Virus record (IMG/VR): IMGVR_UViG_3300028591_000173 | Location: 4,799-68,798 of that record | DNA length: 64,000 nt | DNA from: a virus | Reading direction: 5' to 3' (one strand) | Part shown: piece by piece, positions 40,420 through 55,332 of the stretch | How positions within the stretch are numbered: position 1 is the first letter of the stretch | Layout: every line of letters begins with the position of its first letter | Program-made: the position numbers and the translations under genes | The notes under the pieces: generated by a model | The model's input: only the letters and a program-made list of their open reading frames with translations | Told to the model about the DNA's origin: nothing | The model's database searches: none

Positions 40420-40682
40420 GCAGATACGAGCCAAAGCGCAAAGAGATCCTGAAAAAAGGCGAAGACGGGTTCGCGTATCTCGACCTCGAACACGTCGGGT
40501 ACAGGACCGTCGGCGAAGCCATAAGAGACATCCAAAAGCACAAAATCGAGAATTGGGTGATCGTGAGGAACGCCAGTGGGCTCTATGACATCTGCGCCAA
40601 ACCCGACACCGGCGGCGAAAGCCTCACCGAAACCCTGAAAAGCGTAATAGAGGGAATCAGATCGGGGAAACACCGACAATGA
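40416..40682 (+). CDS. hypothetical protein
   Basis: ORF. Confidence 0.5.
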   Translation: MSRYEPKRKEILKKGEDGFAYLDLEHVGYRTVGEAIRDIQKHKIENWVIVRNASGLYDICAKPDTGGESLTETLKSVIEGIRSGKHRQ

Positions 40683-41005
40683 AACGCAAGAAAACGTTCG
40701 AGGTCCCCGACGTGGAAGACTTCGAGAGGATAGTGCTCATGTCGATATTCTCCGAGATGATGTTCAAAGCGAGGAAAGGCCGCGAGGCGGAATTCGACTC
40801 ACTGGTTGCCAGCGCATGCAACGCAATGTTCGAAGCGGAGGTCATGGCCTTCATGATGGGGGCGAATCTGCTCCCCAAACCGAACACCGCGGGCGACTTC
40901 ATAAGCGCGTCGCGGTTCTACTTGGCGTGCATCGTGCCGAATCGGCGCACGATAATAACGGTGGCCACGCTGCCGGAGAACCATAAGGAGGAAAACAAAA
41001 AATGA
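40679..41005 (+). CDS. hypothetical protein
   Basis: ORF. Confidence 0.5.
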   Translation: MKRKKTFEVPDVEDFERIVLMSIFSEMMFKARKGREAEFDSLVASACNAMFEAEVMAFMMGANLLPKPNTAGDFISASRFYLACIVPNRRTIITVATLPENHKEENKK

Positions 41006-41346
41006 GCAAACTTGATTTAGACGACGATTTATTAGCCATCATCACGAAAATGAGCGAGGGAAACCCAGGATGCATAACATTCCTCATGGAAGTGATGAAG
41101 AATGTGGATCAGTTCAGATTCATCGAGATGGTCCTGAGGCTTGACAAGGCGGAGCTGTACGGAAGCCATATCTATATGCTATGGAACGACTGCTGCGACA
41201 GGGACCTTGACAAGACCATCGAAATGATTACGAACATAAAAAACGACGATGAGCTCCGCTCCTATGTCATCGATCGCGGCTATGGGAAAAAATACGAGCA
41301 GCAGAAGAGCCCAAAACCCGAGCTCTTCGAGGAGGAAGCGAAATGA
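41002..41346 (+). CDS. hypothetical protein
   Basis: ORF. Confidence 0.5.
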   Translation: MSKLDLDDDLLAIITKMSEGNPGCITFLMEVMKNVDQFRFIEMVLRLDKAELYGSHIYMLWNDCCDRDLDKTIEMITNIKNDDELRSYVIDRGYGKKYEQQKSPKPELFEEEAK

Positions 41347-41744
41347 GCAGACTCACGACCAGAATGAGCATCATGGGGCGCAAGCACGACATCGAGGGCG
41401 GCCAAGCGTACCATTGGAAGGAAAAGCTCAAAGGCTATGACTATTCACTCATAGAAGAAGTTGTGGATAAGTTAGGCGATTTGGAGGATATAGAGGAAGA
41501 GATGGGCTGTCCCATCGAAGTCCTATTCAAAGCCATGAAGCAGGGCTTATTCTACAAAGGATACTCCGGCGATATTAAGGAATTCATGCCGGATGGCTCG
41601 CAATTCATAGCTCCTGATCTGCCTAATGAGGGACTTTTGCTCCTTCACGTAAGCGCCTATGAAGACTGCATCATCATCGAGAAGGGCCTTGCTTTGAACG
41701 GTTACGGAACGGAATGGGCTCTGACCAAGGAGGAACTGCAATGA
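41343..41744 (+). CDS. paralog family A member (C-terminal GYGTEWALTKEELQ)
   Basis: full-length similarity to 51977..52330. Confidence 0.55.
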   Translation: MSRLTTRMSIMGRKHDIEGGQAYHWKEKLKGYDYSLIEEVVDKLGDLEDIEEEMGCPIEVLFKAMKQGLFYKGYSGDIKEFMPDGSQFIAPDLPNEGLLLLHVSAYEDCIIIEKGLALNGYGTEWALTKEELQ

Positions 41745-42130
41745 ACCGCCATAAATTAGAGCCGGCGCATACCCCGCCCCTCGGCACTGTGGAAGACGTC
41801 GAGGCCGTATTCGATAAATACGGCGTCAAGGACCTCAAGGACCTGGACGAGAGGCTCGGCATCTACCAGGCCCTCGCCGACCATGACTACACCGCCGTAG
41901 ACAAGCCCGCCTACGAGGCCATGATGGAGGACATCAAGCGCCTGAGGAGGAAATCCAAGGCCTGCGACATCCTCATCAAAATCGCCTATGAGCACTTCGA
42001 ATGGCACGCGGGGATGAATGCGGTCAAACTCCCCGACAGAACCATCGAATTGGAGGCCGACGATTACGATGCGCTCCGCAAAGAGGTCCTGAGATACTGG
42101 ACGAAGCTGGGCAAGGAGGGTAAGAGATGA
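41741..42130 (+). CDS. hypothetical protein
   Basis: internal ATG of ORF 41714. Confidence 0.5.
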   Translation: MNRHKLEPAHTPPLGTVEDVEAVFDKYGVKDLKDLDERLGIYQALADHDYTAVDKPAYEAMMEDIKRLRRKSKACDILIKIAYEHFEWHAGMNAVKLPDRTIELEADDYDALRKEVLRYWTKLGKEGKR

Positions 42131-42705
42131 CCTATTACGTGGTGAAGGTCGTGGCCCATGGAATCACGATGTATATGACCGATGTCGAGGAAAACGAAGG
42201 CCCTTCCTTCAAAAGCTTTACGATCGGGTACAGCTCGCGTCTGAAAAACGCCAAGAGGTTCGACAAATACCTCGACGCGCTCGAGAGATGCGGCAGGGGC
42301 GACGTCGTCGCGATGGTCGAGGACGGGACCGTCACCGACATGGAATTCAGGCTCGGCGACGTGCGCGTCTATCTCGTCCCGATGCTCCCGGAAGGCGTCG
42401 TGATGGAGACCTTCAAGGAAGACAGGGGAGACACGCTCATCCAGTATACGTTCACGGAATCCGAGTGGCTGGCCGTAAAACGCGACAAAGCCGCGTCGGA
42501 GCATTACAGGAAACACATTGCCGCATACGCGAGAAGCAAAGGGATCGAGTCATACCATCTGCATAAGGTGGAGACGAACTCCCGCGGCGCGTTCGATCTC
42601 CTGAGAAAGCAGGGAGAAGGGGAATGCGTGGAGATCTTCAGGATGTCCGAAGAGGACATAATCGCCTCCGGGATCCTGAGATGCCTCACTCCCAAAAAAT
42701 CCTAA
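42127..42705 (+). CDS. hypothetical protein
   Basis: 192-aa ORF. Confidence 0.55.
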   Translation: MTYYVVKVVAHGITMYMTDVEENEGPSFKSFTIGYSSRLKNAKRFDKYLDALERCGRGDVVAMVEDGTVTDMEFRLGDVRVYLVPMLPEGVVMETFKEDRGDTLIQYTFTESEWLAVKRDKAASEHYRKHIAAYARSKGIESYHLHKVETNSRGAFDLLRKQGEGECVEIFRMSEEDIIASGILRCLTPKKS

Positions 42706-42758
42706 AATCCCCGGCAAAACCGCATTATTTTCCGAAAAGAAAGGAGGGCAAAGACCCT

Positions 42759-43007
42759 ATGAGAAAGAAAAAAGACAGACCAAAGAGGCTGACTAGGAAG
42801 GAGTTCCTGACCGGCTGCGAGTACGCCCTGAACCCATGGGCGTCGGGCAACGAGGCCCAGGACAAGCTCGGTCCGATAGAGGACATCGAGGACGAGCTCG
42901 GCATAGACGCCGCGAAGTTCCTCAGATGGGTCCGCAACAACCCGGACAGGCCGATATCCGGCACCGTCTCCGGGCTGATCTCCGCGTTCAGGGGGAAGGC
43001 ATTATGA
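42759..43007 (+). CDS. hypothetical protein
   Basis: SD aaggaggg; internal ATG of ORF 42624. Confidence 0.5.
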   Translation: MRKKKDRPKRLTRKEFLTGCEYALNPWASGNEAQDKLGPIEDIEDELGIDAAKFLRWVRNNPDRPISGTVSGLISAFRGKAL

Positions 43008-43408
43008 GGGAAAGCGTCAGAAAATCGCTCATGGCAGCCTCGTTCGTGGCCGCGATAACCCTGCCCCTCCTCGCGATATGCGGGGCCGCCATCGGGGTCC
43101 GCGCCTCCCACAACTCGGAGAGATCGCTCACCCCGGTCGGCTGGTGCGTCGAGGCGGTGGCCGGCAGAATCGGCACCGACCCCGAAGGCATGCCATACAC
43201 CTATTCCATGATAGAAGGCACGCGCGGGGAGGATTCGGCGGGCTACGCCATCACCGCCTACGCGGCGGGGGCCAAGTCCGACTGGATCTGCCACGTCGAG
43301 TGCCGGACGGACGACTTCTGGTACAGGATGGCCACGTTCGGGGTGAGCTGGGAGAACACCCTATTCAGGGCCGATGAGGTCGCGTCCCTGACTTGCAAGC
43401 GCGTCTAG
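43004..43408 (+). CDS. lipoprotein (lipobox LLAIC)
   Basis: MRESVRKSLMAASFVAAITLPLLAIC. Confidence 0.55.
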   Translation: MRESVRKSLMAASFVAAITLPLLAICGAAIGVRASHNSERSLTPVGWCVEAVAGRIGTDPEGMPYTYSMIEGTRGEDSAGYAITAYAAGAKSDWICHVECRTDDFWYRMATFGVSWENTLFRADEVASLTCKRV

Positions 43409-43482
43409 GGTGTGCCATAATGGGATCCCCAGGTTATCCCCCACCCGTCCTATGCGGGATGGGCATCTGAAAGGGCTGCGCC

Positions 43483-43506
43483 GAGAGCGCGGCTCTTTTT
43501 TGTTTG
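43483..43506 (+). terminator. hairpin GAGAGC-GCG-GCTCTT + TTTTTGTTTG
   Basis: short stem, strong T tract. Confidence 0.45.
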
Positions 43507-43531
43507 CTTTATCATAATTCCAAAAAAACGC

Positions 43532-43560
43532 TTGACTTATATGAATGGAAGAGCGAAAAT
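43532..43560 (+). promoter_or_regulatory. promoter-like TTGACT-N17-GAAAAT
   Basis: weaker -10. Confidence 0.35.
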
Positions 43561-43595
43561 GTCACCGAACCGAAAAAGGAGAAACCGAAATCACA

Positions 43596-43805
43596 ATGAA
43601 AGACGAGAACAAGCAAAGCATCGACAGCCGCGTCGCCATCTATCTCAATGACGACAAGACCTATACGGTCCGCAGAGCCGATAAGGGCTGGACCATACAA
43701 AGCGGCATCAAGACGCCGGATGAGGCGCTCGCCATCAAGAGAGCGTACGTCTTCGGATACATCGACGGCAGAGAGGAAACCAAGGAGGAGCCGAAACAAC
43801 AATGA
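43596..43805 (+). CDS. hypothetical protein
   Basis: internal ATG of ORF 43545. Confidence 0.45.
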   Translation: MKDENKQSIDSRVAIYLNDDKTYTVRRADKGWTIQSGIKTPDEALAIKRAYVFGYIDGREETKEEPKQQ

Positions 43806-44467
43806 ACGAGAATTACGAAAGGGCGATAGCCTTAGCCGAGAGGCTTAAAAACGAGGGGTGGGCCATCCACTCCATCGACGTCGACAAGAGAGAAGTCAAC
43901 ATCAGCAAATACTACGCGAGCCTATCAGTGTGGTTCAGCGTCGAGAGCGAATACCGCGTCAAGATCAGCATCAAAGACGCCTATGAGAGCGAACATTACA
44001 GATACGCCGAATCAGACGAAAACGGCTTCATCGAGACCATCGTCAAGATGCTCAAAGAGTTCAGCCACGACAACTTCCGGCTCGTCACCGTCAACAGATA
44101 CGGCAAGAGCTGGGACGGGCATGACAGATACGAGTTTCGCTATTGCTCAGACGGCTCCTCGCTGATCAAGTCGCTGGTCGACGACCACTACGACAAGTCA
44201 TTGGACAGGGAGAACATATTCTCGCTCGAGAGACACGAGACGCAATACCCGAACCCATTGATGAAACTCATCGTCGAGAGGGTCAGCGGAGTGCCTGACG
44301 AGCTCAGGGACCATTACTTGCTCAAAGAGAGCACGATCATCTTCAAATGCTCCCACATCGAGTACAGGGACAACGGGCAAGGCAAACCTTCCCAAGAGGA
44401 AAGAGAGAGAAGGACCTACTACGCCTTGGTCGACTTCACCCAAAACAAGAACGAAAGAAGAGGATGA
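43802..44467 (+). CDS. hypothetical protein
   Basis: 221-aa ORF. Confidence 0.55.
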   Translation: MNENYERAIALAERLKNEGWAIHSIDVDKREVNISKYYASLSVWFSVESEYRVKISIKDAYESEHYRYAESDENGFIETIVKMLKEFSHDNFRLVTVNRYGKSWDGHDRYEFRYCSDGSSLIKSLVDDHYDKSLDRENIFSLERHETQYPNPLMKLIVERVSGVPDELRDHYLLKESTIIFKCSHIEYRDNGQGKPSQEERERRTYYALVDFTQNKNERRG

Positions 44468-44481
44468 GGAGGAAAACGCGA

Positions 44482-45282
44482 ATGGATGAATTCCACAGAA
44501 GGCTGAACATAGCCAACGAAGGCAAGAAAAGGGTCGCCGACGAGGTGATGAGATTCAACAAGCCCGACACCCTCGTGATCGACCTCGGGGCGGGGACATG
44601 CGTCATAGAGCGCCTTCTCCTTGAGCGCGGGTTCAAAGGGTCGGCATACGCCGTGGACCGGCAGGGGAGCGCCCCTGACTGGATGGCATCCGCCCCCGGC
44701 TTCCTATTCGTGAAAGGCGACATCATAGACAGATTCGCCCCGCTCATGGGCAAGCTCCGCAGGAAAGGCAAGGGCCAGCACGTCGTGTTCGTCCTGTCCG
44801 CCATCCTGCACGAGATGAAGAAAGAGGACAGGGAGGACCTCGCCGCCCTAATCAGGATCGCGTCAAGGCACACCGAGGCGAGGGTCCACCTCATCGTGAG
44901 GGAGGCCGTATACGGCCCGAGCATCGGCTACAGCCCGGAGATCGACGACATCGCCGTCACGAGCAACATCGCCGGATTCGAGAGGAAATGGCTCGAATAC
45001 TCCAAGCTCCACAGATACGAATGGACGCAGGACGTCCTATTCGCCAATTTCTGCTTCGCCCTGTCATACGGCGCCGAGTCGTGGGCCAGGGAGCGCAAGG
45101 AAGGCAGATACACCCTGAGCGAGACCGACCTGCGGGACTTCGTCAGGGCCTGCGGCTGCCACGTCGATGCGGAATGGTCCGAGAAGGATCCGCTCTACGA
45201 GGCGACGCTCCCGTTCGGGCTCTTCGAGGCCCTGCCATACACGAGCAGGGGGTTCGTATGCCACGAAGGAGAGGCACTATGA
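44482..45282 (+). CDS. class I SAM-dependent methyltransferase (motif I VIDLGAGTC)
   Basis: SD gaggagg 9 nt upstream of ATG 44482. Confidence 0.55.
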   Translation: MDEFHRRLNIANEGKKRVADEVMRFNKPDTLVIDLGAGTCVIERLLLERGFKGSAYAVDRQGSAPDWMASAPGFLFVKGDIIDRFAPLMGKLRRKGKGQHVVFVLSAILHEMKKEDREDLAALIRIASRHTEARVHLIVREAVYGPSIGYSPEIDDIAVTSNIAGFERKWLEYSKLHRYEWTQDVLFANFCFALSYGAESWARERKEGRYTLSETDLRDFVRACGCHVDAEWSEKDPLYEATLPFGLFEALPYTSRGFVCHEGEAL

Positions 45283-45641
45283 GTTACGTCAGGACCAAAG
45301 ACGGAAGGCTCTTCGAAGTCTTGAGAAGCGACGGAGAGAACGTTTTCGTCAAGGATTACGATTACGACAACGACGACTGGTACACAAGAACCATAAAATC
45401 GCGCGACGTCAGGCAAGCCGACTCCATCGAGAGGCTCTGCGACGAGTTCGTCGTGCTGGAATACGGGATCGAAAGCGGCGTTCTGTACGGCAGAAGCCAA
45501 TACATCATCCTTGAGGACGCGATAGCCTCGCAGACGTCGACACACAAATGCTCGTATGAGATCTACGGCGCGGTTTGGACGGACAATGGGCTTATCTACA
45601 GAGCCAAGATGAACGAGAAAGGGGAGTTTGAGCTATTATGA
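45279..45641 (+). CDS. paralog family B member (SIERLCDEF ... NEKGEFELL)
   Basis: SD ggagagg. Confidence 0.55.
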   Translation: MSYVRTKDGRLFEVLRSDGENVFVKDYDYDNDDWYTRTIKSRDVRQADSIERLCDEFVVLEYGIESGVLYGRSQYIILEDAIASQTSTHKCSYEIYGAVWTDNGLIYRAKMNEKGEFELL

Positions 45642-45913
45642 CTAAAGGTTTAAAGGCGCTAGGGAGAATCAGGGTCTTCATGAGCCAGAACTGCAAACAT
45701 TGGAAACAGGATATCGGATATGTCGAGGAAGAGCTCAAAGACGGCGCGAAATGCAGAAAAGCCCTTGAGATCATCAAGAACGCGTTAAAAGAAATGGGGC
45801 TTGAATATATTATCAGCAGCGAAACCATGCTCCTTCATGGTGATGACTTCGAAAGAGAATATAAATGCAAATCAGCAGAAGAATTCGATTTACTCAAGGA
45901 GGCGTTGGGATGA
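45638..45913 (+). CDS. hypothetical protein (lower-GC)
   Basis: 91-aa ORF. Confidence 0.5.
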   Translation: MTKGLKALGRIRVFMSQNCKHWKQDIGYVEEELKDGAKCRKALEIIKNALKEMGLEYIISSETMLLHGDDFEREYKCKSAEEFDLLKEALG

Positions 45914-46128
45914 GCAAGAAATCAATAATCAGCATACAAGATAGCGATAGTGAGCTGTGGGATAAAGCCAAAAAGCAAGGCTACATTTGGGTGAAAACCG
46001 AGAGTGGCTTCATCACCAAAGACGAAATGAGCAATTACGCTAAGCTCACAAGCGCATGGTATGGGGTTTTCCCCTCGCAAAAAACCTACGGCAAGACCTG
46101 GGCCCTCACGAAGGAGGAGCTGGAATGA
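45910..46128 (+). CDS. paralog family A member (C-terminal TYGKTWALTKEELE)
   Basis: internal ATG of ORF 45865. Confidence 0.5.
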   Translation: MSKKSIISIQDSDSELWDKAKKQGYIWVKTESGFITKDEMSNYAKLTSAWYGVFPSQKTYGKTWALTKEELE

Positions 46129-46448
46129 GCGCAGAATCGTTCACGTTCGGCGCGAACTGGCTCGGCCCTATGTTCACAGTGTCGCTGAATCCCAGTCCCA
46201 AAGCGAGGTTTGTCGACAAGTATTTCAGAACGCCAGACGGCGAAACATGCTGCGTGTCGTTCGAAGAAAGCACATGGCTTCTGGCGCAAGATCACCCAGA
46301 GATAGCCAAGACGATACGAGAGCTCGAAAGAGAGCATCTGCGTTCGCTCACTGGATCGGAGGTTGGCAACCAGCTAATAAAGATAAGGGCTCCACGAAAA
46401 GTGTTCGAGAGACTCAAAGAATATAATAGGGAGGATCATAGGAAATGA
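46125..46448 (+). CDS. hypothetical protein
   Basis: internal ATG of ORF 46056. Confidence 0.5.
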   Translation: MSAESFTFGANWLGPMFTVSLNPSPKARFVDKYFRTPDGETCCVSFEESTWLLAQDHPEIAKTIRELEREHLRSLTGSEVGNQLIKIRAPRKVFERLKEYNREDHRK

Positions 46449-46684
46449 GCGCATTGGAATACCTTATGGCTTACGGAAGATTCAGGGACGAAACGGACCA
46501 TTGCTCCGACTGCGAGCACCGCGACGCCTGCGACATAGCCGATCAGACGAGCTTCTGCGAGGACTGCAAAGACTTCGGCGACTGCGGCATACTGAAGACC
46601 TGCGAGAAGGGCGAATACGTGGAGTGCAACAACGGATTCGAGCCGAAATACGACGACGGATACGATGAGGAGGAATCGGAATGA
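46445..46684 (+). CDS. Cys-rich acidic small protein
   Basis: 79 aa, about 10 Cys. Confidence 0.5.
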   Translation: MSALEYLMAYGRFRDETDHCSDCEHRDACDIADQTSFCEDCKDFGDCGILKTCEKGEYVECNNGFEPKYDDGYDEEESE

Positions 46685-47073
46685 GCTGTGACAAAGGTTT
46701 TGCGATAAACATAAGCGGCCACGAGTACCGCGTCGTCTGCGAACGCGCCGTCTTCAGGAAAACCGGCGGATTCGACATGGCGCTTCTCATCCGGGTCTTC
46801 GCCGACGGCAAAAAGACGGAGCTGAAGGAAATCGACGGCTACGCCAAAGAGAAGATAAGCGACTACATCGAGAACACCATCAACGGGCAGGACACGCTCT
46901 ATTGGGATCCCGATGGGACGAACAGGCACCTGGACAAGGCTAGGATGCCCACGCAGAAATCGAAAGGCAAGGCTTCTTTCTCCGGGTATTTGAAGAGATT
47001 CTATTCAAACCATTCCCTGAATGCCGGCAAGAAGAAGCGCGTCATCGTCTCGGCGGGAAGGGTCATTTTCTGA
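46681..47073 (+). CDS. hypothetical protein
   Basis: ORF. Confidence 0.5.
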   Translation: MSCDKGFAINISGHEYRVVCERAVFRKTGGFDMALLIRVFADGKKTELKEIDGYAKEKISDYIENTINGQDTLYWDPDGTNRHLDKARMPTQKSKGKASFSGYLKRFYSNHSLNAGKKKRVIVSAGRVIF

Positions 47074-47084
47074 GGAGATCTACT

Positions 47085-47324
47085 ATGAGCTTTAATCAAC
47101 TTGACATTATCACCGTTCCTACTAAGTCTAGCCCAAAGTTGGGTCAGCTGATGGAATACCTTAAAGGTATCGAACATGAGTGCAGACGTACCATCAACAA
47201 ATACGGAATAGCCATTGTGGAGATGAAGATCTATGACAAATGGCATATCATCTATGACTGGGTTTGGAGTCCTATGAATAATCTGACTTATGTCTATTAT
47301 TTCAAAGAAGGGAGCGAAGAATGA
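47085..47324 (+). CDS. hypothetical protein (AT-richer)
   Basis: ORF. Confidence 0.5.
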   Translation: MSFNQLDIITVPTKSSPKLGQLMEYLKGIEHECRRTINKYGIAIVEMKIYDKWHIIYDWVWSPMNNLTYVYYFKEGSEE

Positions 47325-47506
47325 ATAAGCGCCTTAGGACAGGGAAAACCGTCCGCCTGAAAGACACGAGGGACAACAGGATCTACAAATGCGTGGCTTA
47401 TCGCATAAGCAGGAAAAACTACTGCTATCTATGCGCCGATGAGCATCACAGGCCCATCGCTTTTTACCAATACGAGATAGACAAAGGAGATTTCAAGCTG
47501 CTATGA
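47321..47506 (+). CDS. small hypothetical protein
   Basis: ORF. Confidence 0.45.
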   Translation: MNKRLRTGKTVRLKDTRDNRIYKCVAYRISRKNYCYLCADEHHRPIAFYQYEIDKGDFKLL

Positions 47507-47880
47507 ACAAGAAAGAGAAAGCGTTGCTTGACAAGGCAATTCCCTACGACTACAGAAACCCGAAGCCGATGAAGATCTTCTATCTCCTCAACACCCACAG
47601 GCGATACAGGGGGTTCTGGGGCAAGAACGGATACAACAACGTCATCGTGATCGGCACGTACTGGGAAGAGGGCATGGAAGACGAGGTCTTCTACAGGTTC
47701 GACGACTGCAAGGAAAGGGACCTGGTGGAGGTCTTCGTCCAAAAGCATATGTCCGTCGTCAAGCTCGACATCGACGGCAAGTACGACACCATGCGGCTCT
47801 GCCTCGACGAGAGGGTCTTCGTCCCTGAGTACAACCTATCGAACTTCGTCATCCATACGAACGGGGAGGATGGGAAATGA
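47503..47880 (+). CDS. hypothetical protein
   Basis: ORF. Confidence 0.5.
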   Translation: MNKKEKALLDKAIPYDYRNPKPMKIFYLLNTHRRYRGFWGKNGYNNVIVIGTYWEEGMEDEVFYRFDDCKERDLVEVFVQKHMSVVKLDIDGKYDTMRLCLDERVFVPEYNLSNFVIHTNGEDGK

Positions 47881-48077
47881 AGGCAAGCGTATGCAGGAAT
47901 TGCGAGCATTGCAAAAAGCGTTGCTGGGTGCAAAGATACAAGCCTGTTGGGTATCACGCCATCGGCATGGCTCACGCTTACGGGTATTGCTCCGCGCACG
48001 AAAAACGCTGCTCAGAGATAAGCGAATGCGCTGATTTCGAGCAAAAAATACTTTTGATGAATGGAAAGGAGTTATAA
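47877..48077 (+). CDS. Cys-rich small protein
   Basis: 66 aa, CxxCxxC. Confidence 0.5.
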   Translation: MKASVCRNCEHCKKRCWVQRYKPVGYHAIGMAHAYGYCSAHEKRCSEISECADFEQKILLMNGKEL

Positions 48078-48079
48078 AG

Positions 48080-49042
48080 ATGAAGAAAGAATACTTTGAG
48101 AAGATCATCGCCTCCATATGCGACTGCGGCATCAGCAGCGAGAAAATCGAGGAAGCGTTGGTCGACGTCATCCAGCTGGCCGAGAAGAACGGGGACAGGG
48201 AAGTCGCCGAAATCGTCCGCAAGAGAAAGGAGAGCTCCGGCAGGTGCTTCTCCTATGAGGTGACGAGGAAAGACGACTATGGCGGCTATCAGTTCATGCG
48301 CCTCGAGCAGAAGCCCAGCAAACCGCTCATCCTTCCTTTTGGCATCAAGAACGACATCAACAACGCGATAAAAGGCATCAAGAAGAAAGTCGGGATCAAC
48401 CGCGTCATCTTGATCGGAAAACCAGGGACAGGGAAGACAGAAGCGGCGCATCTCTTGGCGGAAAGGCTTGACGCCCACTTCTTCACCATCAACTGCGTCC
48501 AGCTCATCGATTCCAAACTGGGGGAAACGCCCAAGAACATTGTCAAGGTTTTCGAGACCATCAGCCATGCCGACAGACCTACATTGTTCTTCTTCGACGA
48601 GGTGGACAGCATAATCAACAACCGAACCAACTCAAAAGACGTGGAAGAAATGGCCAGAACCGTCACCGCGTTCATGAGAGGGCTTGACCTCACGGAAGAC
48701 AACCCAAACGCAGTCGTCGTGTGCGCCACCAACCTGAACAAGAAACTAGACCAAGCATTGCTTCGCAGGTTCGACATCGAGATAGACATAAGCGACTACG
48801 ACGGAGAGACCTTGGACCGCATCGCCGCCCACTACGTCGATGGCTATTACGGCCCCGGCGCTTACGAAAACGGGGACACGAAAGCGATCAAGGATTACTT
48901 GCGGGAATCCCAGAAGACGATAACCCCCGCCGACATCAGGCTGGCCGCCAAAAGGGCATACGCGTTCGGCTCGGGCGACAGGTTCGACAAATGGTTGCTA
49001 TTGAAGGAGCTCAGAAAAGAGGCGGAAAGGAAAAACCGATGA
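48080..49042 (+). CDS. AAA+ ATPase (classic clade: Walker A GKPGTGKT, Walker B LFFFDEVD, Arg finger ALLRRFD)
   Basis: 320-aa ORF. Confidence 0.75.
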   Translation: MKKEYFEKIIASICDCGISSEKIEEALVDVIQLAEKNGDREVAEIVRKRKESSGRCFSYEVTRKDDYGGYQFMRLEQKPSKPLILPFGIKNDINNAIKGIKKKVGINRVILIGKPGTGKTEAAHLLAERLDAHFFTINCVQLIDSKLGETPKNIVKVFETISHADRPTLFFFDEVDSIINNRTNSKDVEEMARTVTAFMRGLDLTEDNPNAVVVCATNLNKKLDQALLRRFDIEIDISDYDGETLDRIAAHYVDGYYGPGAYENGDTKAIKDYLRESQKTITPADIRLAAKRAYAFGSGDRFDKWLLLKELRKEAERKNR

Positions 49043-49227
49043 GGCAAAGCACGATCTTAACCAGCGAGAAGATAATCGTGAACGGAGTCGAGCTGCCACC
49101 CCTCCCGAACGGCGCGGGATTCACGAACTGCTCCGTCGTGGACAACAGGGTCTTCGTCAACGGCTATGAGCTCAGGAACGGGAAGTGGAAGAAGACGCTC
49201 AGGGCATTGTGGCATAAGCTGTTCTAG
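49039..49227 (+). CDS. small hypothetical protein
   Basis: internal ATG of ORF 48721. Confidence 0.4.
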   Translation: MRQSTILTSEKIIVNGVELPPLPNGAGFTNCSVVDNRVFVNGYELRNGKWKKTLRALWHKLF

Positions 49228-49259
49228 CCCGAAAAACATAAAGAAGTAAAAAAAATTTC

Positions 49260-49289
49260 TTGACCTTTTCATATTTTACATACTAAAAT
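49260..49289 (+). promoter_or_regulatory. sigma70-like promoter TTGACC-N18-TAAAAT
   Basis: hexamers 49260-49265 / 49284-49289. Confidence 0.55.
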
Positions 49290-49319
49290 GTGTACACATA
49301 GAAAAGGGAGGATCCTCAT

Positions 49320-49574
49320 ATGAGAAGAATCACACTGACCGACGGGCAGGCCGAATTGCTCGAAAAGCTCCTCGAACGCGAGATGGACGAGGAATGGCTC
49401 TACCAGATGGACGGATTCAGGGACCCGGCGCACTACAAAGACGTGCTCGGCCTCTACAAAGCCATCCAGCCAAAGCCAAGGAACCTAATCGACGCCCTGA
49501 CCATCGAAGGGCTGACGTCCGATAGGGACAGGGATCTCGCCGAGATCGTCGGAGGGCAGGCCAAATGTTCGTGA
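49320..49574 (+). CDS. hypothetical protein
   Basis: SD aagggagg. Confidence 0.5.
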   Translation: MRRITLTDGQAELLEKLLEREMDEEWLYQMDGFRDPAHYKDVLGLYKAIQPKPRNLIDALTIEGLTSDRDRDLAEIVGGQAKCS

Positions 49575-49714
49575 TAAAAAGCAAAATCGACTACCAGGAA
49601 TACGGCGGATTCGCCACAAAGAAAGAGGCCCGGGCCCGCATACGCGAGCTAAAGAGGTTCGACCGCGAGCAGGGCAACCCCTTCGACGAGGGGTACTTCA
49701 TCGAGGAGGAATGA
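49565..49714 (+). CDS. 49-aa hypothetical protein not in ORF track
   Basis: ATG 49565, fills the gap to 49716. Confidence 0.3.
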   Translation: MFVIKSKIDYQEYGGFATKKEARARIRELKRFDREQGNPFDEGYFIEEE

Positions 49715-49715
49715 G

Positions 49716-49922
49716 ATGAGCCTGAAAGGCATCATGCTGGCCGACGCGATGCTCTCGCTGATGGCCGGGGGCGACCTGCCCTACAAAGAGAGCCCGTACC
49801 TTGCGGCCCCAGCCGACCGAAGATGGAAGGAAAAGAGGCCGAAGGACGGGAAACCGAAGACTAGAGCCGTCTATTACTACGACGAGAAAGGCAACCTGAG
49901 AAGGAAGAAGGAGAAGCTATGA
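49716..49922 (+). CDS. hypothetical protein
   Basis: ORF. Confidence 0.45.
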   Translation: MSLKGIMLADAMLSLMAGGDLPYKESPYLAAPADRRWKEKRPKDGKPKTRAVYYYDEKGNLRRKKEKL

Positions 49923-50293
49923 GATACATCAGAACCGAAAACGGAAAAATCTACGATACCATAGAAGATAAAAGAATAAGGCTTGGACGCAATGATGAGA
50001 CACACGAAATTACCTTCTACCTTTGTGGGGTGAGCGCGTTTTCACCCCATGTTGTCCTAGACGTTATCGACCAAGCCGACACAGTCGACGAGCTCTGCGA
50101 CTGCTACCTCGAGGACTGCGGAAGAGGCGTACCGGCCATAATCACAAAGACGATGTGGGTGGATTTCCACATGGAAAAAGCCTTTAGAGGAGAGACCGCA
50201 TTCTACGCCTGCATAGTCAAGAGAGACGAAAAAGGCACCCATATAAACCCGGTCGCCAAGCTCAACGAAAAGATGGGGTGGGACCTATTATGA
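49919..50293 (+). CDS. paralog family B member (VDELCDCY ... NEKMGWDLL)
   Basis: ORF. Confidence 0.5.
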   Translation: MRYIRTENGKIYDTIEDKRIRLGRNDETHEITFYLCGVSAFSPHVVLDVIDQADTVDELCDCYLEDCGRGVPAIITKTMWVDFHMEKAFRGETAFYACIVKRDEKGTHINPVAKLNEKMGWDLL

Positions 50294-50481
50294 GCAAAGG
50301 CACCAAGGTCTGGTACAGATGGCCGAACGGGCAGATGCAGCGCGTCTACATCTACGAGGACTTCCATATAAAAGGCGAGATATGCCACCGGGGTTCCAGC
50401 GGGCATAGGAGCTTCGTGCTCAAAGACGGCGAGTACGGGAAAAACTGGGCATACACCAAGAAGGATTTCAGGGAGGAATGA
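50290..50481 (+). CDS. small protein with degenerate family A tail (EYGKNWAYTKKDFREE)
   Basis: internal ATG. Confidence 0.45.
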   Translation: MSKGTKVWYRWPNGQMQRVYIYEDFHIKGEICHRGSSGHRSFVLKDGEYGKNWAYTKKDFREE

Positions 50482-50483
50482 GG

Positions 50484-50891
50484 ATGATCGACGGAAAGAA
50501 GGCATTCATAGCGCTAGGCACATGCGTGCTGGCCAAATCCAAGAAATACAACGACGACTCGGCCCGCATCAGACCAAAGGGCGAGGAACGCGATTACTCC
50601 CCCAAAGAGCTGGCGGGGATCGTTCTCGAGGACCTTGAGAGAGGCGAGGGCAACGACAAGATCGGCATAAGCCTCACCAAAGCGGCCAAAGCCATCGACG
50701 CAGGATATATCTGGTTCAAGGAAGAGGGTCGCGAGCCGGAAGAGGCAGAGGTTCTGAGCCTCCTTCGCGGCACTCTCTTCTCGAAGGGCTGGCGCATAGA
50801 GTGCTGCGACATCGACTTCAAGCTGCGCGCGTTTCCCCTTAACGAATACGGCAAGACATGGGCCCTTACGAAGAAGGAGCTGGAGAGATGA
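50484..50891 (+). CDS. paralog family A member (C-terminal EYGKTWALTKKELER)
   Basis: SD ggagg. Confidence 0.5.
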   Translation: MIDGKKAFIALGTCVLAKSKKYNDDSARIRPKGEERDYSPKELAGIVLEDLERGEGNDKIGISLTKAAKAIDAGYIWFKEEGREPEEAEVLSLLRGTLFSKGWRIECCDIDFKLRAFPLNEYGKTWALTKKELER

Positions 50892-51403
50892 GCGAGATAA
50901 AGATAAAAAACAGCCGAGGCCTCATGAGAAGGGTCTACGGCCTCAGCCCCTCGGTCGAGGAGGCCATCGAGAGATTCGCCTCCACAAGCGAGGAGAACCG
51001 CCTCACCATAGAGGAAGCCAAAAGGCTCATCAAAGGGCAGGGCTACGTCAGGACCAAAAGCAGGATCTACAGGCTGGCCAGCCTCAAAGACGGGAAAGCC
51101 CTCGTCTGGAAAGGCTACGAGCTTGTCTGCATCAAAGAGAGCAGCATCCTCAGGAAGGCGGCTTCCATCGAGGAATTGTGCGATGAGTTCGTCCTTTATG
51201 ACCCCTATCCCGACCAACACGAATATTTGGTCAAAATATCAAAGATAAACGGTAAGGTCTATTATGAGTTCCTGACCGGGACGAACAAGAACAGATTCGA
51301 CTGGCAAAGCGGCAGGGAGAGGATCTACGGCGCGATCTGGACCGAAAAGGGCCTCATCTACGTCGCCGCGCTCACCGAGAAAGGAGGCTTCGAGCCGCTA
51401 TGA
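50888..51403 (+). CDS. paralog family B member (SIEELCDEF ... TEKGGFEPL)
   Basis: internal ATG of ORF 50858. Confidence 0.55.
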   Translation: MSEIKIKNSRGLMRRVYGLSPSVEEAIERFASTSEENRLTIEEAKRLIKGQGYVRTKSRIYRLASLKDGKALVWKGYELVCIKESSILRKAASIEELCDEFVLYDPYPDQHEYLVKISKINGKVYYEFLTGTNKNRFDWQSGRERIYGAIWTEKGLIYVAALTEKGGFEPL

Positions 51404-51729
51404 AAGAAGAGATGGAATACGTCCACCACCCGTTGGAGCAGGCTGTGCACAGCCTCGCCTGCCTGGCCACCCCCATCACCAGGATGCCGGGCCTCGTGGA
51501 CAACCTATACAAAGACGCCGAAGAGCAGATCGGGGCGCTCATGAAAGAGCACAAAGCCCTTGGGATCATCAAGAAACACGCAAGAGATATAAAACACTTC
51601 AAATACCTTCTCTACATGGCCAAATATTGGGAGGAGAACGAAATCGAGGTGACGGAAGAGCTTCTATACAATTACGATTTCCCGTATACCGTCGACGAGT
51701 TCAACCTCCTGAAGGAGGAACTGAAATAA
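51400..51729 (+). CDS. hypothetical protein
   Basis: ORF. Confidence 0.5.
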   Translation: MKEEMEYVHHPLEQAVHSLACLATPITRMPGLVDNLYKDAEEQIGALMKEHKALGIIKKHARDIKHFKYLLYMAKYWEENEIEVTEELLYNYDFPYTVDEFNLLKEELK

Positions 51730-51980
51730 TGCCGATAAAACACTGGGCCTTGGGGAGCGCCCGCAGCAAAACCCCCATGCGAATGAGCATCACCATGTCC
51801 AAGCAGACCGACCTGATGGAAAAGGTCGCGGCCAAGCTGGCCGAGGCAGGCATGGAGATCGCCAGGGAAACCCCGGACACGCAGTTTTTCGTCCTGAAAG
51901 ACGAGAACGAGCCGCATATGTGCGTGTCGGCCACGCTTAGGATCATCATCAAGCCAAGGAAGGAGTACATCACGAGATGA
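51729..51980 (+). CDS. hypothetical protein
   Basis: internal ATG of ORF 51627. Confidence 0.45.
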   Translation: MPIKHWALGSARSKTPMRMSITMSKQTDLMEKVAAKLAEAGMEIARETPDTQFFVLKDENEPHMCVSATLRIIIKPRKEYITR

Positions 51981-52330
51981 GAGAAAGAATAACCGAGAAA
52001 ACGAACGGCCATTGGTCTTACAACATAGACCAGGATTTCAGCGAAGACGACGCCGGCGGCTATGGCATCAACTTCGGCTCCCACACGCTGGAGAGCGCGG
52101 TCGAGAAACTTGGCAAGCTGGAGGACTTCGAGGATAAGTTCGACTTCCCCCTCGAAATCCTGCTGAAGGCTTTGACGGAAGGCATCTACGACAAGCGAAG
52201 ATACTACATCGGAAGCTGCATCAGCCTAAGCAACGGGAACATCGGATTATACATCGGCGACCTGGACAGGCTGTTCCTATTCAAGGATTACGGCGAAACC
52301 TGGGCCGCAACAAAGGAGGAACTGGAATGA
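51977..52330 (+). CDS. paralog family A member (C-terminal DYGETWAATKEELE)
   Basis: ORF. Confidence 0.5.
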   Translation: MRERITEKTNGHWSYNIDQDFSEDDAGGYGINFGSHTLESAVEKLGKLEDFEDKFDFPLEILLKALTEGIYDKRRYYIGSCISLSNGNIGLYIGDLDRLFLFKDYGETWAATKEELE

Positions 52331-52515
52331 GAAACGGGCGATTCATGGACGTCACCGAGGCCTACGACGAGATGCTGAACGCGTTCGGAAGGCTCAGGAA
52401 GAACAGCGACCTCGCGATCATGTGCGTGGACGGCAGGTTCGTCCTGGTCAACACCAAAGGCAACAGATTCAGCGTCGTCAAAGAGCTCAAGAAGGTGGGG
52501 GAATGCCACCTATGA
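52327..52515 (+). CDS. small hypothetical protein
   Basis: ORF. Confidence 0.45.
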   Translation: MRNGRFMDVTEAYDEMLNAFGRLRKNSDLAIMCVDGRFVLVNTKGNRFSVVKELKKVGECHL

Positions 52516-52721
52516 GCCTGTGGGAGGAGTTCGAGCTCTCCGAGGACAGGGCCAAGGAGCTCAGGCTCGACGGGCTCAATGAGCCGACCGAGAAAGACTG
52601 CCTCTTCCTGATGTGCTTCATGACCTTCGGCGGGATATGCAGCGAGGAAGAGGTGAGGAAGATAGCCGACATAGCGTACGGCGCGTACGAAAGGAAACGC
52701 CATAAGGAGGAAACGAGATGA
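52512..52721 (+). CDS. small hypothetical protein
   Basis: internal ATG of ORF 52422. Confidence 0.45.
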   Translation: MSLWEEFELSEDRAKELRLDGLNEPTEKDCLFLMCFMTFGGICSEEEVRKIADIAYGAYERKRHKEETR

Positions 52722-52972
52722 GAATCGAGACGAAATTCAATTTAGGCGACAAGTTATACTTCGTCAGGGAGAACAGAATCAACGAAGGAACCGTCAGCGG
52801 GATCGAGATAGACGTCGGCAAAACGAACAAGAAGAAAATCGTGACGGACCTCTCATACCGCGTCTGGAACGGCTCTTCCATGACGATGATCTCCGAGTCA
52901 AGGGCCTTCGCCACGATCGACGAGCTCACAGCGAGCCTCGTCGGCGAGTACAGAAAGGGGGCCAAGCGATGA
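52718..52972 (+). CDS. hypothetical protein
   Basis: ORF. Confidence 0.5.
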   Translation: MRIETKFNLGDKLYFVRENRINEGTVSGIEIDVGKTNKKKIVTDLSYRVWNGSSMTMISESRAFATIDELTASLVGEYRKGAKR

Positions 52973-53337
52973 GCTACAGGCTGGAGAAGATCATAGCCCC
53001 GGACTGCGTCACCCATGGCAGGCCCCGCAAGAGCTTCGAGGAGGCATACAACGAATACCTTTTCGAGGATACGTGGACATCCTCGGCGACCGTCTACCTC
53101 CAAGAGAAGAGGGACGGGGAATGGGTCACCCTCTCAAAGCCCGAGATAGCGAGGCTCTGCCGCAAGGTCAGCGAGCGCGGCGAGATCTCCATCGCCACCG
53201 CCGGCTACACCTACACATTCAGGCTGCCGAAGAAGGTCGAGGTCCCGAGCGACCTCGGCGGGTGGCAGGCCCTCGCATACGTCCTCCTGTCCCTCCTATG
53301 CGACAAGATGGAAACCGAGCCAAGGGAGGGGTTCTGA
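52969..53337 (+). CDS. hypothetical protein
   Basis: ORF. Confidence 0.5.
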   Translation: MSYRLEKIIAPDCVTHGRPRKSFEEAYNEYLFEDTWTSSATVYLQEKRDGEWVTLSKPEIARLCRKVSERGEISIATAGYTYTFRLPKKVEVPSDLGGWQALAYVLLSLLCDKMETEPREGF

Positions 53338-53339
53338 CG

Positions 53340-53636
53340 ATGAGATACGCGAGGATGAGGGACGGCTCGATCATTGAGAGGAAAGCCGGGAACTACGCCA
53401 TCCCAAACCCAGAGGATATCGTCAGGGAATCCGACGACCTGGAGAGCCTCTTCGACGGGATCATATTCAAGGACACCTGCGCGAACAGGCTCCGCTTCGT
53501 CGACATAAACGCCGCGTGGGACATCCTCGGGGCCGCCCTGTTCAAAGAGACCGTAAGGGGATACGTCGAGACCGAGGAGGGCCTCAGGTACGCCGCGAGG
53601 CTCAGCCCAAGCGGGGAAGGGTGGGAGCTGCTATGA
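53340..53636 (+). CDS. family B-like small protein (MRYARMRDG ... GEGWELL)
   Basis: SD gggagggg. Confidence 0.5.
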   Translation: MRYARMRDGSIIERKAGNYAIPNPEDIVRESDDLESLFDGIIFKDTCANRLRFVDINAAWDILGAALFKETVRGYVETEEGLRYAARLSPSGEGWELL

Positions 53637-54373
53637 GGCGCATAATGCTGGCGATGAGCCCGGAACGGGCCAAGCTCGCCCTTGAGGGGAGGCTGAAGGA
53701 CGAGATCCGCAAGACATTCCCGAAATGCGAATTGCCCTGCGAGGTGTTCATATACGTGACGAAGGGGGAGGACATCCTCATCGCGTATGAGGACTATGAC
53801 TACGATAGTATGAGTTACTATAGCCCTGAATACGCACTCATACCGAAAACCCTCTTCGCCAAGAAACCCAGCAAAGACGATGAGGATTACAGCCTCTACG
53901 AAAGCGAGCGCGATGCCTACAGATACTACAAGAACGATTTTGACAAGACGCAGCACGACCATGAGTGGAAGCTCAACGGCAAAGTGGTTGCCAAGTTCAC
54001 CTTAAACAAAGTCGGTGAAATACATAACTTCCCATATGGGTACGAAATGTTTGTGAGCAATGCAGACATTAGAAGAGAAGGAGAAATTTGCCAAAAAGCC
54101 TGCCTAACAAGCGACGAACTTAGAGAATATCTTCCTTGTGACAAAGAAAGATATGGCTACGCTTGGCATATCGACAACCTTGTGATCTTCGACGAGCCGA
54201 AAGAGCTGAAAGACTTCGTCGGATTCGGCACCCCGACATACGAGCAGACCAGATCGCTCGTCGAGCTGTCCGGCAAGCCTTATTCCAAAGAGACCTACAG
54301 AGAGCATTGCGAGCGTTTCGGATACACTCTCAAGAGACCGCCTCAGTCGTGGCAGTACGTGGAGGAGATATAG
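53633..54373 (+). CDS. hypothetical protein, possible ASCH-like N-terminus; contains a low-GC internal segment
   Basis: internal ATG of ORF 53516. Confidence 0.5.
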   Translation: MRRIMLAMSPERAKLALEGRLKDEIRKTFPKCELPCEVFIYVTKGEDILIAYEDYDYDSMSYYSPEYALIPKTLFAKKPSKDDEDYSLYESERDAYRYYKNDFDKTQHDHEWKLNGKVVAKFTLNKVGEIHNFPYGYEMFVSNADIRREGEICQKACLTSDELREYLPCDKERYGYAWHIDNLVIFDEPKELKDFVGFGTPTYEQTRSLVELSGKPYSKETYREHCERFGYTLKRPPQSWQYVEEI

Positions 54374-54374
54374 C

Positions 54375-54842
54375 ATGGGGACATACACATACCTGAGATT
54401 CTCCGGCCAGCTCAAAAGGGAGCACGCCAAGGAGATAAAGAAACTGTTCGACATGGGCCAACCGACCGTCGTGGATTCCGAGGGCAAGAACGAGTGGGAG
54501 CTCTTCGCCGAGAGGCACGATTTCGCGAAGCATCTCGCGAGCCTCCCCCGCGCGACCCAGATCCCGTTCGGGGCGATAACCGCGTACAACAGGGACAAGG
54601 CCGGGACCGACGACGCGTTCAGCAACGTGTTCTTCGGGGACGATGAGCAAGCCTGGGCGTTCCAATGCGACCTCAAGGACTACGACGGGGAGATCGAGGC
54701 GTTCCTGACCGAGGTCGCCCCGGAGATATGCGAGAGGTTCGTGGCCGAGGAGTGGCTCGAGGAATGCGATTTCCCGATAGTGCATGCGTACAACCTCGGG
54801 GGATACCTCAACGAGATAAAACGGAAAGGAGCCAAACCATGA
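54375..54842 (+). CDS. hypothetical protein
   Basis: ORF. Confidence 0.5.
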   Translation: MGTYTYLRFSGQLKREHAKEIKKLFDMGQPTVVDSEGKNEWELFAERHDFAKHLASLPRATQIPFGAITAYNRDKAGTDDAFSNVFFGDDEQAWAFQCDLKDYDGEIEAFLTEVAPEICERFVAEEWLEECDFPIVHAYNLGGYLNEIKRKGAKP

Positions 54843-55129
54843 CCGAAGAGGAATACCTGAGGCAACGCGAAGCCAGGATCGAGGGGATAAAGGAAAGATT
54901 CCCGTTCGTCCGCTCGATATGCATCGACGGGGACCCGTATATCGTGACCGCCTGGTTCATATTCGGCGGGAAGTGCCACTACGGCTCGCTCGAGCAGCTT
55001 GAGGGATACTGCGCCGAATGCAGGGACGCGCTCATGAGGGCGCTGTTCCCGGAGGCCGACGGGCATCGCGATGAGATCGTCGTGGCCCCGCTTGCCGAGA
55101 CAGACAGAAAGGAAAAACGAAAACCATGA
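54839..55129 (+). CDS. hypothetical protein
   Basis: internal ATG of ORF 54665. Confidence 0.5.
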   Translation: MTEEEYLRQREARIEGIKERFPFVRSICIDGDPYIVTAWFIFGGKCHYGSLEQLEGYCAECRDALMRALFPEADGHRDEIVVAPLAETDRKEKRKP

Positions 55130-55332
55130 AAGACATAGCCATAGAGAGAACCGCGCCGACCGGGCTGGCCGACACCGTCAGATGCAAGGTCATCGACTTC
55201 GGGCTCGCCGCATGCTGCGGGAGCGCCGCCGTATCGGACCTCCTCAAATACGAGTTCGGCGAGGACTACGCCGACCAGCAAGTCAACCTCATGTCGCCGA
55301 AGGCCGGCACGCTCATCCCCGATCCGGAATAG
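55126..55332 (+). CDS. small hypothetical protein
   Basis: ORF. Confidence 0.45.
   Translation: MKDIAIERTAPTGLADTVRCKVIDFGLAACCGSAAVSDLLKYEFGEDYADQQVNLMSPKAGTLIPDPE

Follow-up and report, generated by a model that had tools for sequence, protein, structure and literature searches.

An undescribed and very large family of small proteins, built of conserved blocks and hypervariable segments, in a viral gene array

The window analysed here is a 64,000 nt stretch of viral DNA (IMG/VR record IMGVR_UViG_3300028591_000173, positions 4,799 to 68,798). It contains an array in which most genes carry an ATGA start/stop overlap and an embedded ribosome-binding site. Five ORFs of this array had been predicted, from the sequence, to form a second paralogous family (family B) that is interleaved with another (family A) in a mosaic of recurrent modules. 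All five begin with ATG, have a Shine-Dalgarno-like sequence upstream and are genuine ORFs. They are listed in Table 1 together with their neighbours, and the four accepted as family B are labelled B1 to B4.

Table 1. Genes and sites of the window discussed in the text
Feature	Position	Strand	Evidence
Family A member, outside the originally predicted span	41343..41744	+	External family A HMM, E 1.1e-17
Partial family A copy	near 42760-43007		External family A HMM
Terminator-like hairpin, then promoter-like site	43469..43560	+	Consensus matches only
B1, family B, 120 aa	45279..45641	+	External HMM, E 1.7e-33; hhalign 99.9%
Family C member, coupled downstream of B1	45638..45913	+	External family C HMM, E 1.9e-13; ATGA overlap
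Family A member completing the B1-C-A cassette	45910..46128	+	External family A HMM, E 1.9e-07
Non-member ORF	47321..47506	+	HMM E 2.5; hhalign 1.3%
Promoter-like site, 92-nt gap before the B3/B2/B4 unit	49260..49289	+	10/12 consensus match only
B3, divergent family B member, 124 aa	49919..50293	+	External HMM, E 5.4e-14; hhalign 98.0%
Short family A member, next gene after B3	50290..50481	+	HMM E 0.0012; ATGA overlap
Family A member directly upstream of B2	50478..50891	+	External family A HMM, E 1.6e-11
B2, family B, 171 aa	50888..51403	+	External HMM, E 3.2e-29; hhalign 100%
Family C member, coupled downstream of B2	51400..51729	+	External family C HMM, E 4.6e-08; ATGA overlap
Family A member closing the B2-C-x-A cassette	51977..52330	+	External family A HMM, E 8.5e-19
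B4, most divergent member, 98 aa	53340..53636	+	External HMM, E 6e-07; hhalign 94.9%
ASCH-like protein (phrog_3136), coupled downstream of B4	53633..54373	+	phrog_3136, E 9.5e-17

B1 and B2 match each other by blastp (E 3e-17 pairwise; 7e-14 against the window proteome), while B3 and B4 have no detectable blastp match within that proteome. An HMM that drew on 43 external members only, all window sequences being left out, was searched against all six-frame ORFs of the window and recovered B1 to B4, the best match after these having an E-value of 2.3. The profile alignments of the four proteins are full-length and include the N-terminal and central blocks. By these profiles B1 to B4 are members of one family, so that the predicted homology of B1 and B2 and the more distant membership of B3 and B4 are both confirmed, also by profile–profile comparison (hhalign), the kind of check that had been proposed. 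The fifth ORF, 47321–47506, which had been included for its ...FKLL ending, does not belong, with only 15 columns aligned by hhalign. It closes with AAA GGA GAT TTC AAG CTG CTA TGA, a Shine-Dalgarno sequence and an ATGA overlap, and its ending (...KGDFKLL) is explained by this embedded ribosome-binding site and start/stop overlap. Shared gene-end motifs of this kind can mimic homology. The predicted family therefore holds for four of the five ORFs, and its start, core and C-terminal motifs correspond to three conserved blocks of a wider family, the C-terminal one being partly forced by the ribosome-binding site and ATGA.

The family domain of B2 comprises residues 51–171, and the 50 aa that precede it at the N-terminus also occur in P0005 and in the copy of a related phage, L001. 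B4 is without the conserved Cys and Trp, and a homolog search with it returned one close cluster only. By its consensus matches, the 43469–43560 region is the probable start of the transcription unit holding B1; overall, promoter- and terminator-like matches do not exceed the counts in shuffled controls.

Beyond the window, family B comprises 2,169 clusters at 50% identity (E ≤ 1e-3) and 5,336 at 90% identity, almost all of them metagenomic. The proteins are small (about 100–160 aa) and acidic (median pI 5.0). They come from uncultured phages and prophages, mostly assigned to MAGs of Firmicutes (Clostridia, Bacilli, Erysipelotrichaceae), and outside uncultured phages of the gut and rumen the family is apparently absent. 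When the window copies and 38–47 family members were compared with Pfam-A, PHROGs and NCBIfam, counting hits common to several members at E ≤ 0.01, no family was found and the matches were scattered single-member hits. A sequence-profile search of the PDB gave only a spurious match to the TOR1 FATC domain (E 1.2). Searches by tblastn of 50,697 GenBank phages with a family B member and a hand-made consensus gave no match, even with E-values up to 10 allowed, nor did those with family A and C members; a portal protein used as positive control found 12 records in the same collection. A megablast search of the 44–54 kb region against the phage collection was likewise empty. YopX, a small protein rich in beta structure that is common in Firmicutes phages, was rejected as an identity for family B, which matches neither the Pfam model (PF09643) nor the solved YopX structure. 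No mention of the family's motif strings was found in a literature search, and a keyword search gave only a review of polymorphic toxins (PMC3482391). Family B is thus undescribed and very large, and with more than 5,000 clusters lacking a match in Pfam, PHROGs, NCBIfam, the PDB or GenBank phages it represents a sizeable piece of unannotated phage sequence.

Alignments of family B show three near-invariant blocks, MKYIRTKDG (an N-terminal hairpin), QADTIEELCDEF (a central acidic turn) and YGAIWTDKGLIYVAKMNEKGELELL (a C-terminal three-stranded block). Between them lie two hypervariable segments, V1 and V2, and about half of each protein is invariant. V1 (15–73 aa) and V2 (22–68 aa) are unalignable between members, a diversity that is inflated in this sample because most sequences are representatives of 50%-identity clusters. 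Structure prediction, also among the checks originally proposed, gave a confident AlphaFold2 model for B1 (pLDDT 93.8), which is all-beta, with ten strands arranged as 5+5 and with V1 and V2 structured. A second model (P0045, pLDDT 73) has the same order of secondary-structure elements and was left out of the fold searches. The B1 model has no full-length structural match in the PDB or BFVD. Its SH3-like matches cover about 45 residues at 10–20% identity, and protein-binding SH3 domains are matched just as well. The modelled fold probably consists of two SH3-like barrels.

Comparison with relatives indicates how the variable segments are exchanged. Pairs of family B proteins have V1 only in common in 66 cases, V2 only in 37, and both in 6, showing that V1 and V2 reassort independently, with crossovers in the conserved blocks. 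The N-terminal half of B1 is 82% identical (amino acids) to the copy in L001 and 38% to that in a second related phage, L002, while its C-terminal half is 34% identical to the L001 copy and 78% to the L002 copy. The blastn matches to the two phages overlap at 45414–45452. As judged from these alignments, B1 is a chimera, L001-like in its N-terminal and L002-like in its C-terminal half, joined in the middle block. In B2, the 5′ part is 90% identical in nucleotides to its L001 ortholog and the C block 77%, with an unrelated V2 between them; B2 also shares an identical V1 (100%) with P0024, the V2 of which is unrelated. On this comparison the V2 of B2 is a replacement. The B3 slot differs from that of the third L001 copy, with junctions at gene boundaries. 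B4 is 93% identical to its L001 ortholog, so that not every family B copy is fast-evolving.

Up to six family B copies occur within 20 kb. Co-resident copies have only the conserved blocks in common, and none of 43 co-resident pairs exceeds 60% identity over at least 80 residues. Direct repeats in the 37–56.5 kb region are confined to these blocks (65–86% identity). Recent duplication or gene conversion of the window copies was rejected, given that three of them have their own L001 counterpart, that no co-resident pair is close, and that long or near-exact repeats are absent. A diversity-generating retroelement target was also rejected, as such repeats are missing and V1 and V2 vary in length and cannot be aligned; no reverse transcriptase was seen among 30 larger window proteins scanned against PHROGs (ten also against Pfam).

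The link of family B to the following gene is visible at the codon level. Of 48 family B genes, 45 end in NTA-TGA, and the Gly codon of the K-G-E motif is GGA or GGG in 47, compared with 4/48 and 16/48 at other conserved Gly positions (Fisher p 4e-21 and 4e-12, respectively). This bias shows that the genes are translationally coupled to the next one, by a Shine-Dalgarno sequence within their own K-G-E codons and by the ATGA overlap. In 66 related loci, with genes called by a crude custom caller, 42 occurrences of family C and 22 of family A fall within three genes after B, against just 11 and 3, respectively, in the two positions that precede it. The order B, then C, then A, often followed by the ASCH-like gene, is conserved across dozens of contigs. 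The phrog_3136 family lies near B in 24 loci; a relative gives a weak ASCH match (E 0.059). Replication and recombination genes, DNA methyltransferases, integrases and terminase are also found nearby, placing family B in an early/middle accessory region. Comparisons of B with A, B with C, and A with C by hhalign found no relationship, and a kinship of their 'YGAIW' and 'YGKTW' motifs was rejected on this basis. The predicted interleaving with family A is nonetheless real, since external HMMs place family A members among the B copies and the succession of B and C or A recurs in the related loci. The mosaic of recurrent modules is likewise supported for the four ORFs, the B-C-A order being seen beyond the window.

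The likeliest role of family B is that of a binding protein, diversified in its specificity, in the accessory region of the phage. It has no homolog of known function, and a role in binding or counter-defence is proposed purely from its architecture and genomic position. The best explanation, offered tentatively, is an invariant framework carrying exchangeable V1 and V2 cassettes. The central block would connect two small SH3-like barrels, with one half of each barrel invariant and the other variable. A conserved partner would dock on the invariant face, candidates being the C and A proteins translated together with B, or a host machine that is itself conserved. The V1 and V2 cassettes would determine which target is bound, so that a phage would possess a set of different binders for host takeover or counter-defence.

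A nucleic-acid-binding regulator, probably of RNA, is an unlikely but not negligible alternative. Its KOW/SH3/Tudor-like barrels, with the ASCH-like (PUA-like) protein, would target transcripts, or else the machinery of transcription and translation, in an early-to-late switch. However, a median pI of 5.0 and an acidic most conserved surface block (EELCDEF) are poorly suited to binding nucleic acid alone, and a single conserved target does not call for several co-resident copies with unrelated V segments. The structural matches that suggest such barrels are also short, and as good to protein-binding SH3 domains. Somewhat less probable again is a moron, expressed from the prophage for defence or superinfection exclusion and diversifying on behalf of the lysogen against competing phages. 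An integrase gene stands immediately before B in five loci and overlaps it at the start/stop codons, and some members lie in contigs binned with bacterial MAGs; hypervariability would suit any arms race. Yet B is mostly found, in the window as elsewhere, inside long co-directional arrays of small genes beside replication and recombination genes, and not at a prophage end.

The blocks might instead be mainly DNA-level recombination linkers of a selfish shuffling cassette, encoding a protein of little function. Both the conserved blocks of B and the KALEIIK block of the gene after it do contain crossover points, and gene-sized replacements have their junctions at ATGA overlaps. In the C block of 48 distinct genes, however, codon positions 1 and 2 are nearly fixed while third positions have 1–1.75 bits of entropy, and mean nucleotide identity is just 73%. 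Across phages of 26–54% GC, the amino acids of the blocks are fixed and synonymous positions are free. This pattern shows the blocks to be held by selection acting on protein and not on DNA. Reading frames are also intact in all four window copies, and among the copies of related loci only L061 looks split in two, all of which makes the linker explanation very improbable. That the likeness of the four ORFs is due to chance, or only to shared constraints at gene ends, has virtually no probability left: the last 7–8 residues are partly forced by the embedded Shine-Dalgarno and ATGA and recur in unrelated genes such as 47321–47506, but the external HMM matches (E 2e-33 to 6e-7) extend over full-length alignments with the N-terminal and central blocks.

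The combination of constant and diversified parts has parallels elsewhere. Mosaics of phage receptor-binding proteins consist of constant and variable parts exchanged by recombination, as in B. Polymorphic toxin/immunity systems (PMC3482391) also join a constant part to variable parts exchanged at conserved junctions, with several divergent copies per genome. Unlike both, B is small (about 110 aa), has two internal cassettes in place of one C-terminal tip, and lies in the early/middle phage region and not among tail genes; no toxin, immunity or trafficking Pfam domain was found in B, and none in the A and C genes beside it. In the modular theory of lambdoid and dairy phages, conserved 'linker' or boundary sequences have been proposed to serve module exchange. 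As there, short conserved stretches in B form the junctions between otherwise unrelated segments, but those of B lie inside coding sequence and are kept as amino acids with free synonymous sites, and are therefore not primarily conserved as DNA. The SH3-like, KOW and Tudor barrels (retroviral integrase C-terminal domain, NusG/Spt5 KOW, spectrin SH3) have no sequence relationship to B, and nothing in them corresponds to its three invariant blocks or its two exchangeable segments. The ASCH-domain accessory genes known from Firmicutes phages (PF04266, PHROG 3136) are recurrent neighbours of B in the same co-directional array; they encode a different protein with no similarity to B, and the link is one of synteny only.

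A bolder and rather doubtful extension of the binding-protein proposal is that B, C and A together form a phage-encoded system of combinatorial specificity. New V1 × V2 combinations against host or rival-phage targets would keep arising as phages recombine with one another, and possibly as co-resident copies do so, the blocks serving both as framework and as crossover points. If this is true, viruses of gut and rumen Firmicutes would possess, in the B-C-A system, a counterpart at the protein level to antigenic-variation cassettes. Family B offers a tractable model for the way in which phages diversify small binding proteins, and is a candidate source of new host-takeover and counter-defence factors.

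Four open reading frames of the window (B1 to B4) form a real paralogous set of small phage proteins, family B. The homology of B1 and B2 put forward in the original prediction is borne out by blastp (E 3e-17 for the pair, 7e-14 in a search of the window proteome). B3 and B4, described there as more distant members, are too divergent for blastp detection against the window proteome, and outside relatives were therefore gathered. An HMM made solely from 43 outside members was searched against the ORFs in all six frames of the window and recovered B1 (E 1.7e-33), B2 (3.2e-29), B3 (5.4e-14) and B4 (6e-07), the following match being at E 2.3, and found no further family B member. Alignment to family B by hhalign gave probabilities of 99.9, 100, 98.0 and 94.9%, respectively. 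A fifth ORF that had been proposed as a member is not one (HMM E 2.5; hhalign probability 1.3%). All five are genuine ORFs, with an ATG start and a Shine-Dalgarno-like sequence upstream.

The ending of the rejected ORF, AAA GGA GAT TTC AAG CTG CTA TGA, reflects a constraint shared with family B genes without homology. At 35 of the 51 gene junctions in the 37–55 kb region (37061–55332), stop and start codons overlap as ATGA, and an AAGGAG-like Shine-Dalgarno lies 6–11 nt upstream, within the 3'-terminal codons of the preceding gene. In family B it is encoded by the K-G-E codons. The Gly codon is GGA or GGG in 47 of 48 distinct family B genes, compared with only 4/48 and 16/48 at two other conserved Gly positions (Fisher p 4e-21 and 4e-12), and 45 of the 48 end in NTA-TGA, showing that family B genes are translationally coupled. 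Because of the ATGA overlap, codon two of the following gene has to start with A, which gives rise to the M-K/R/S starts. Overlap and embedded signal together bias C-terminal peptides to K-E-E or K-G-E; residue two is likewise biased to K, R, S, T or N. An embedded Shine-Dalgarno combined with the ATGA constraint can imitate homology at gene ends.

Genes within six positions of B were clustered, and two unnamed neighbour families, A (the family A of the original prediction; MRLT...KLGQLEDIEDELGIDL...YGKTWALTKEELE) and C (MSKELEAL...KALEIIK...EEYDLLKEVLL), were then separated by motif-seeded HMMs. With gene calls in related loci taken from a simple purpose-made caller, the three positions after B held 42 C and 22 A genes, and the two positions before it 11 C and 3 A. 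Family C is the commonest gene following B in these loci, and 24 loci have an ASCH-like protein (phrog_3136) near B, before or after it. HMMs made without window and L001 sequences (L001 being a related contig) detected two C genes and six A-type ORFs in the window, giving the cassettes B1-C-A, B3-A-A-B2-C-x-A and B4-ASCH-like. The predicted interleaving of B with family A therefore stands, and the synteny of B with C, A and the ASCH-like gene is conserved. Families A, B and C are unrelated to one another and have no Pfam match. Larger flanking genes encode helicases, exonucleases, DnaD-like loaders, DNA methyltransferases, integrases and terminases; the setting is an early/middle accessory region of a phage. 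As alternatives to the role proposed below, family B could be RNA-binding or regulatory, acting with the ASCH-like partner, or could have a prophage defence role.

Features of the window discussed in the text
Feature	Position (nt)	Remarks
tRNA genes	23418-24414, 31238-31314, 32644-32716	Three spans jointly: eight-tRNA cluster, separate tRNA-Ile(tat) and an odd ARAGORN call
Terminase large subunit	35400-36947	
A-type ORF	42567-43004	Central motif KLGPIEDIEDELGID; outside HMM E 1.5e-07; without the usual YGKTWALTKEELE ending; possibly an A copy that is truncated or has diverged
266-aa protein	44482-45282	Directly upstream of B1; 'VIDLGAGTC' resembles motif I of SAM-dependent methyltransferases; no Pfam or PHROGs match at E<=1e-3
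B1	45279-45641	+ strand
Family C members	45638-45913, 51400-51729	Directly downstream of B1 and B2
79-aa protein	46445-46684	Acidic, Cys-rich; 88% nt identical to the L002 gene two positions after its B
Segment without L001 counterpart	46689-49048	
Rejected family B candidate	47321-47506	In segment 46689-49048
AAA+ ATPase	48080-49042	PF00004, phrog_3757; in segment 46689-49048
B3	49919-50293	+ strand
B2	50888-51403	+ strand
B2 N-terminal extension	50888-51037	B2 residues 1-50
B4	53340-53636	+ strand
ASCH-like protein, then phrog_4438 protein	53633-54373, 54375-54842	After B4; ASCH-like is phrog_3136
Portal protein	57259-58896	
Small-gene block	59890-63274	Opposite strand; begins right after the gene following portal

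The window has the appearance of a phage genome. Nearly all genes lie on the + strand until about 59.7 kb, and an exonuclease, SSB, primase and helicase (21–28 kb) are found downstream of structural genes. Small genes fill the stretch of about 20 kb from terminase to portal, an unusual position for such an array; these number about 52, are closely packed, and apparently form three or more operons. Promoter and terminator matches in the window are consensus matches only, with overall counts not above shuffled controls. The clustered tRNA genes are Pro, Met, Gly, Arg, Gln, Leu, Thr and Ala, and the odd ARAGORN call has a two-base anticodon. In the opposite-strand block, only two genes have PHROGs matches, both weak and of unknown function. 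The best portal matches among GenBank phages were to Streptococcus, Anaerostipes, Solobacterium and Clostridium phages, every one below 31% identity, which makes this an uncultured phage distantly related to those of Firmicutes. L001 (75.8 kb) has the terminase, small-gene array and portal arranged as in the window, and matches it at 82–95% nt identity in blocks broken by replaced segments, until just short of the portal gene. In place of 46689–49048 it carries other genes, including a weak HNH match.

At least two family B copies occurred within 20 kb in 16 of 66 fetched loci (counting L061, whose two matches look like a split gene), with six copies in one. None of 43 co-resident pairs exceeded 60% identity over at least 80 residues. 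The L001 counterparts of B1, B2 and B4 share 51, 60 and 93% identity, so the copies are old and have diverged at very different rates. A repeat search of 37–56.5 kb found only the conserved blocks recurring (65–86% nt identity), so nothing there points to a recent duplication, to gene conversion or to a retroelement template.

Family B is very large and undescribed. A homolog search from B1 returned 20 proteins, an exhaustive profile search 2,169 clusters (50% identity, E<=1e-3), and a profile search of a 90%-identity collection 5,336 clusters (E<=1e-5). Members with listed sources are metagenomic, mostly singleton clusters where sizes are shown, and carry no functional name or Pfam domain. 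Several records are bovine or ruminal, and labels of MAG matches are Firmicutes, Clostridia, Bacilli, Erysipelotrichaceae, Acutalibacteraceae and one Bacteroidales bin. Searching 50,697 GenBank phage records by tblastn gave no match for B, A or C, and a full-text literature search for the motif strings retrieved no paper.

Three family B alignments (A1–A3) display three near-invariant blocks: MKYIRTKDG opens the protein at its very N-terminus, QADTIEELCDEF is central, and YGAIWTDKGLIYVAKMNEKGELELL closes the protein at its very C-terminus. Between the blocks lie V1 (15–73 aa, median 32) and V2 (22–68 aa, median 34), segments not alignable among most members. Some members carry an additional fused module at the N-terminus, namely the B2 extension (…SVEEAIERFASTSEENRLTIEEAKRL…), which also occurs in the L001 ortholog and the outside protein P0005. 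The AlphaFold2 model of B1 (alignment A1) is all-beta and confident (pLDDT 93.8, pTM 0.82). A short turn or helix at the central block divides its strands into two sets of five, the second of which is accompanied by one helix; the model of a second member has its elements in the same order but is less confident (pLDDT 73). The B1 model suggests a pair of small SH3-like barrels that meet at the central block, with V1 and V2 predicted to be ordered strands and not loops or disordered linkers. Foldseek with the B1 model found no match below E 0.001 in PDB and BFVD. In C block codons, positions 1 and 2 are fixed and position 3 varies freely (1–1.75 bits at four-fold sites) across contigs spanning 26–54% GC; selection on the protein therefore maintains the blocks. 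Family B as a purely DNA-level shuffling element is contradicted by these free synonymous sites.

V1 and V2 are two structured cassettes that recombine independently. Pairs drawn from 192 members share V1 alone in 66 cases, V2 alone in 37 and both segments in just 6, the sample consisting of cluster representatives, which exaggerates V diversity. Some pairs, such as B2 and the outside protein P0024, have 100% identical V1 and unrelated V2. At the amino-acid level, B1 is in its N-half closer to the L001 copy (82% identity) than to the copy of L002, a bovine-metagenome phage unrelated to the window (38%); its C-half shows the opposite pattern, with 34% identity to L001 and 78% to L002. The two DNA matches overlap at 45414–45452, within the central block, and the L002 match runs past the B1 boundary into the following gene, where it stops at the conserved KALEIIK block. 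The 79-aa Cys-rich protein, similar to the L002 gene near B, therefore travels with the B-C cassette. Between B2 and its L001 ortholog, nt identity is 90% as far as the central block, V2 is unrelated, and the C block matches at 77%. The third L001 copy sits in a slot next to, and distinct from, that of B3, and the junctions there coincide with gene boundaries. In the proposed role of family B, the invariant face would contact a conserved partner and the V1/V2 cassettes would set target specificity, in what may be host takeover or counter-defence.
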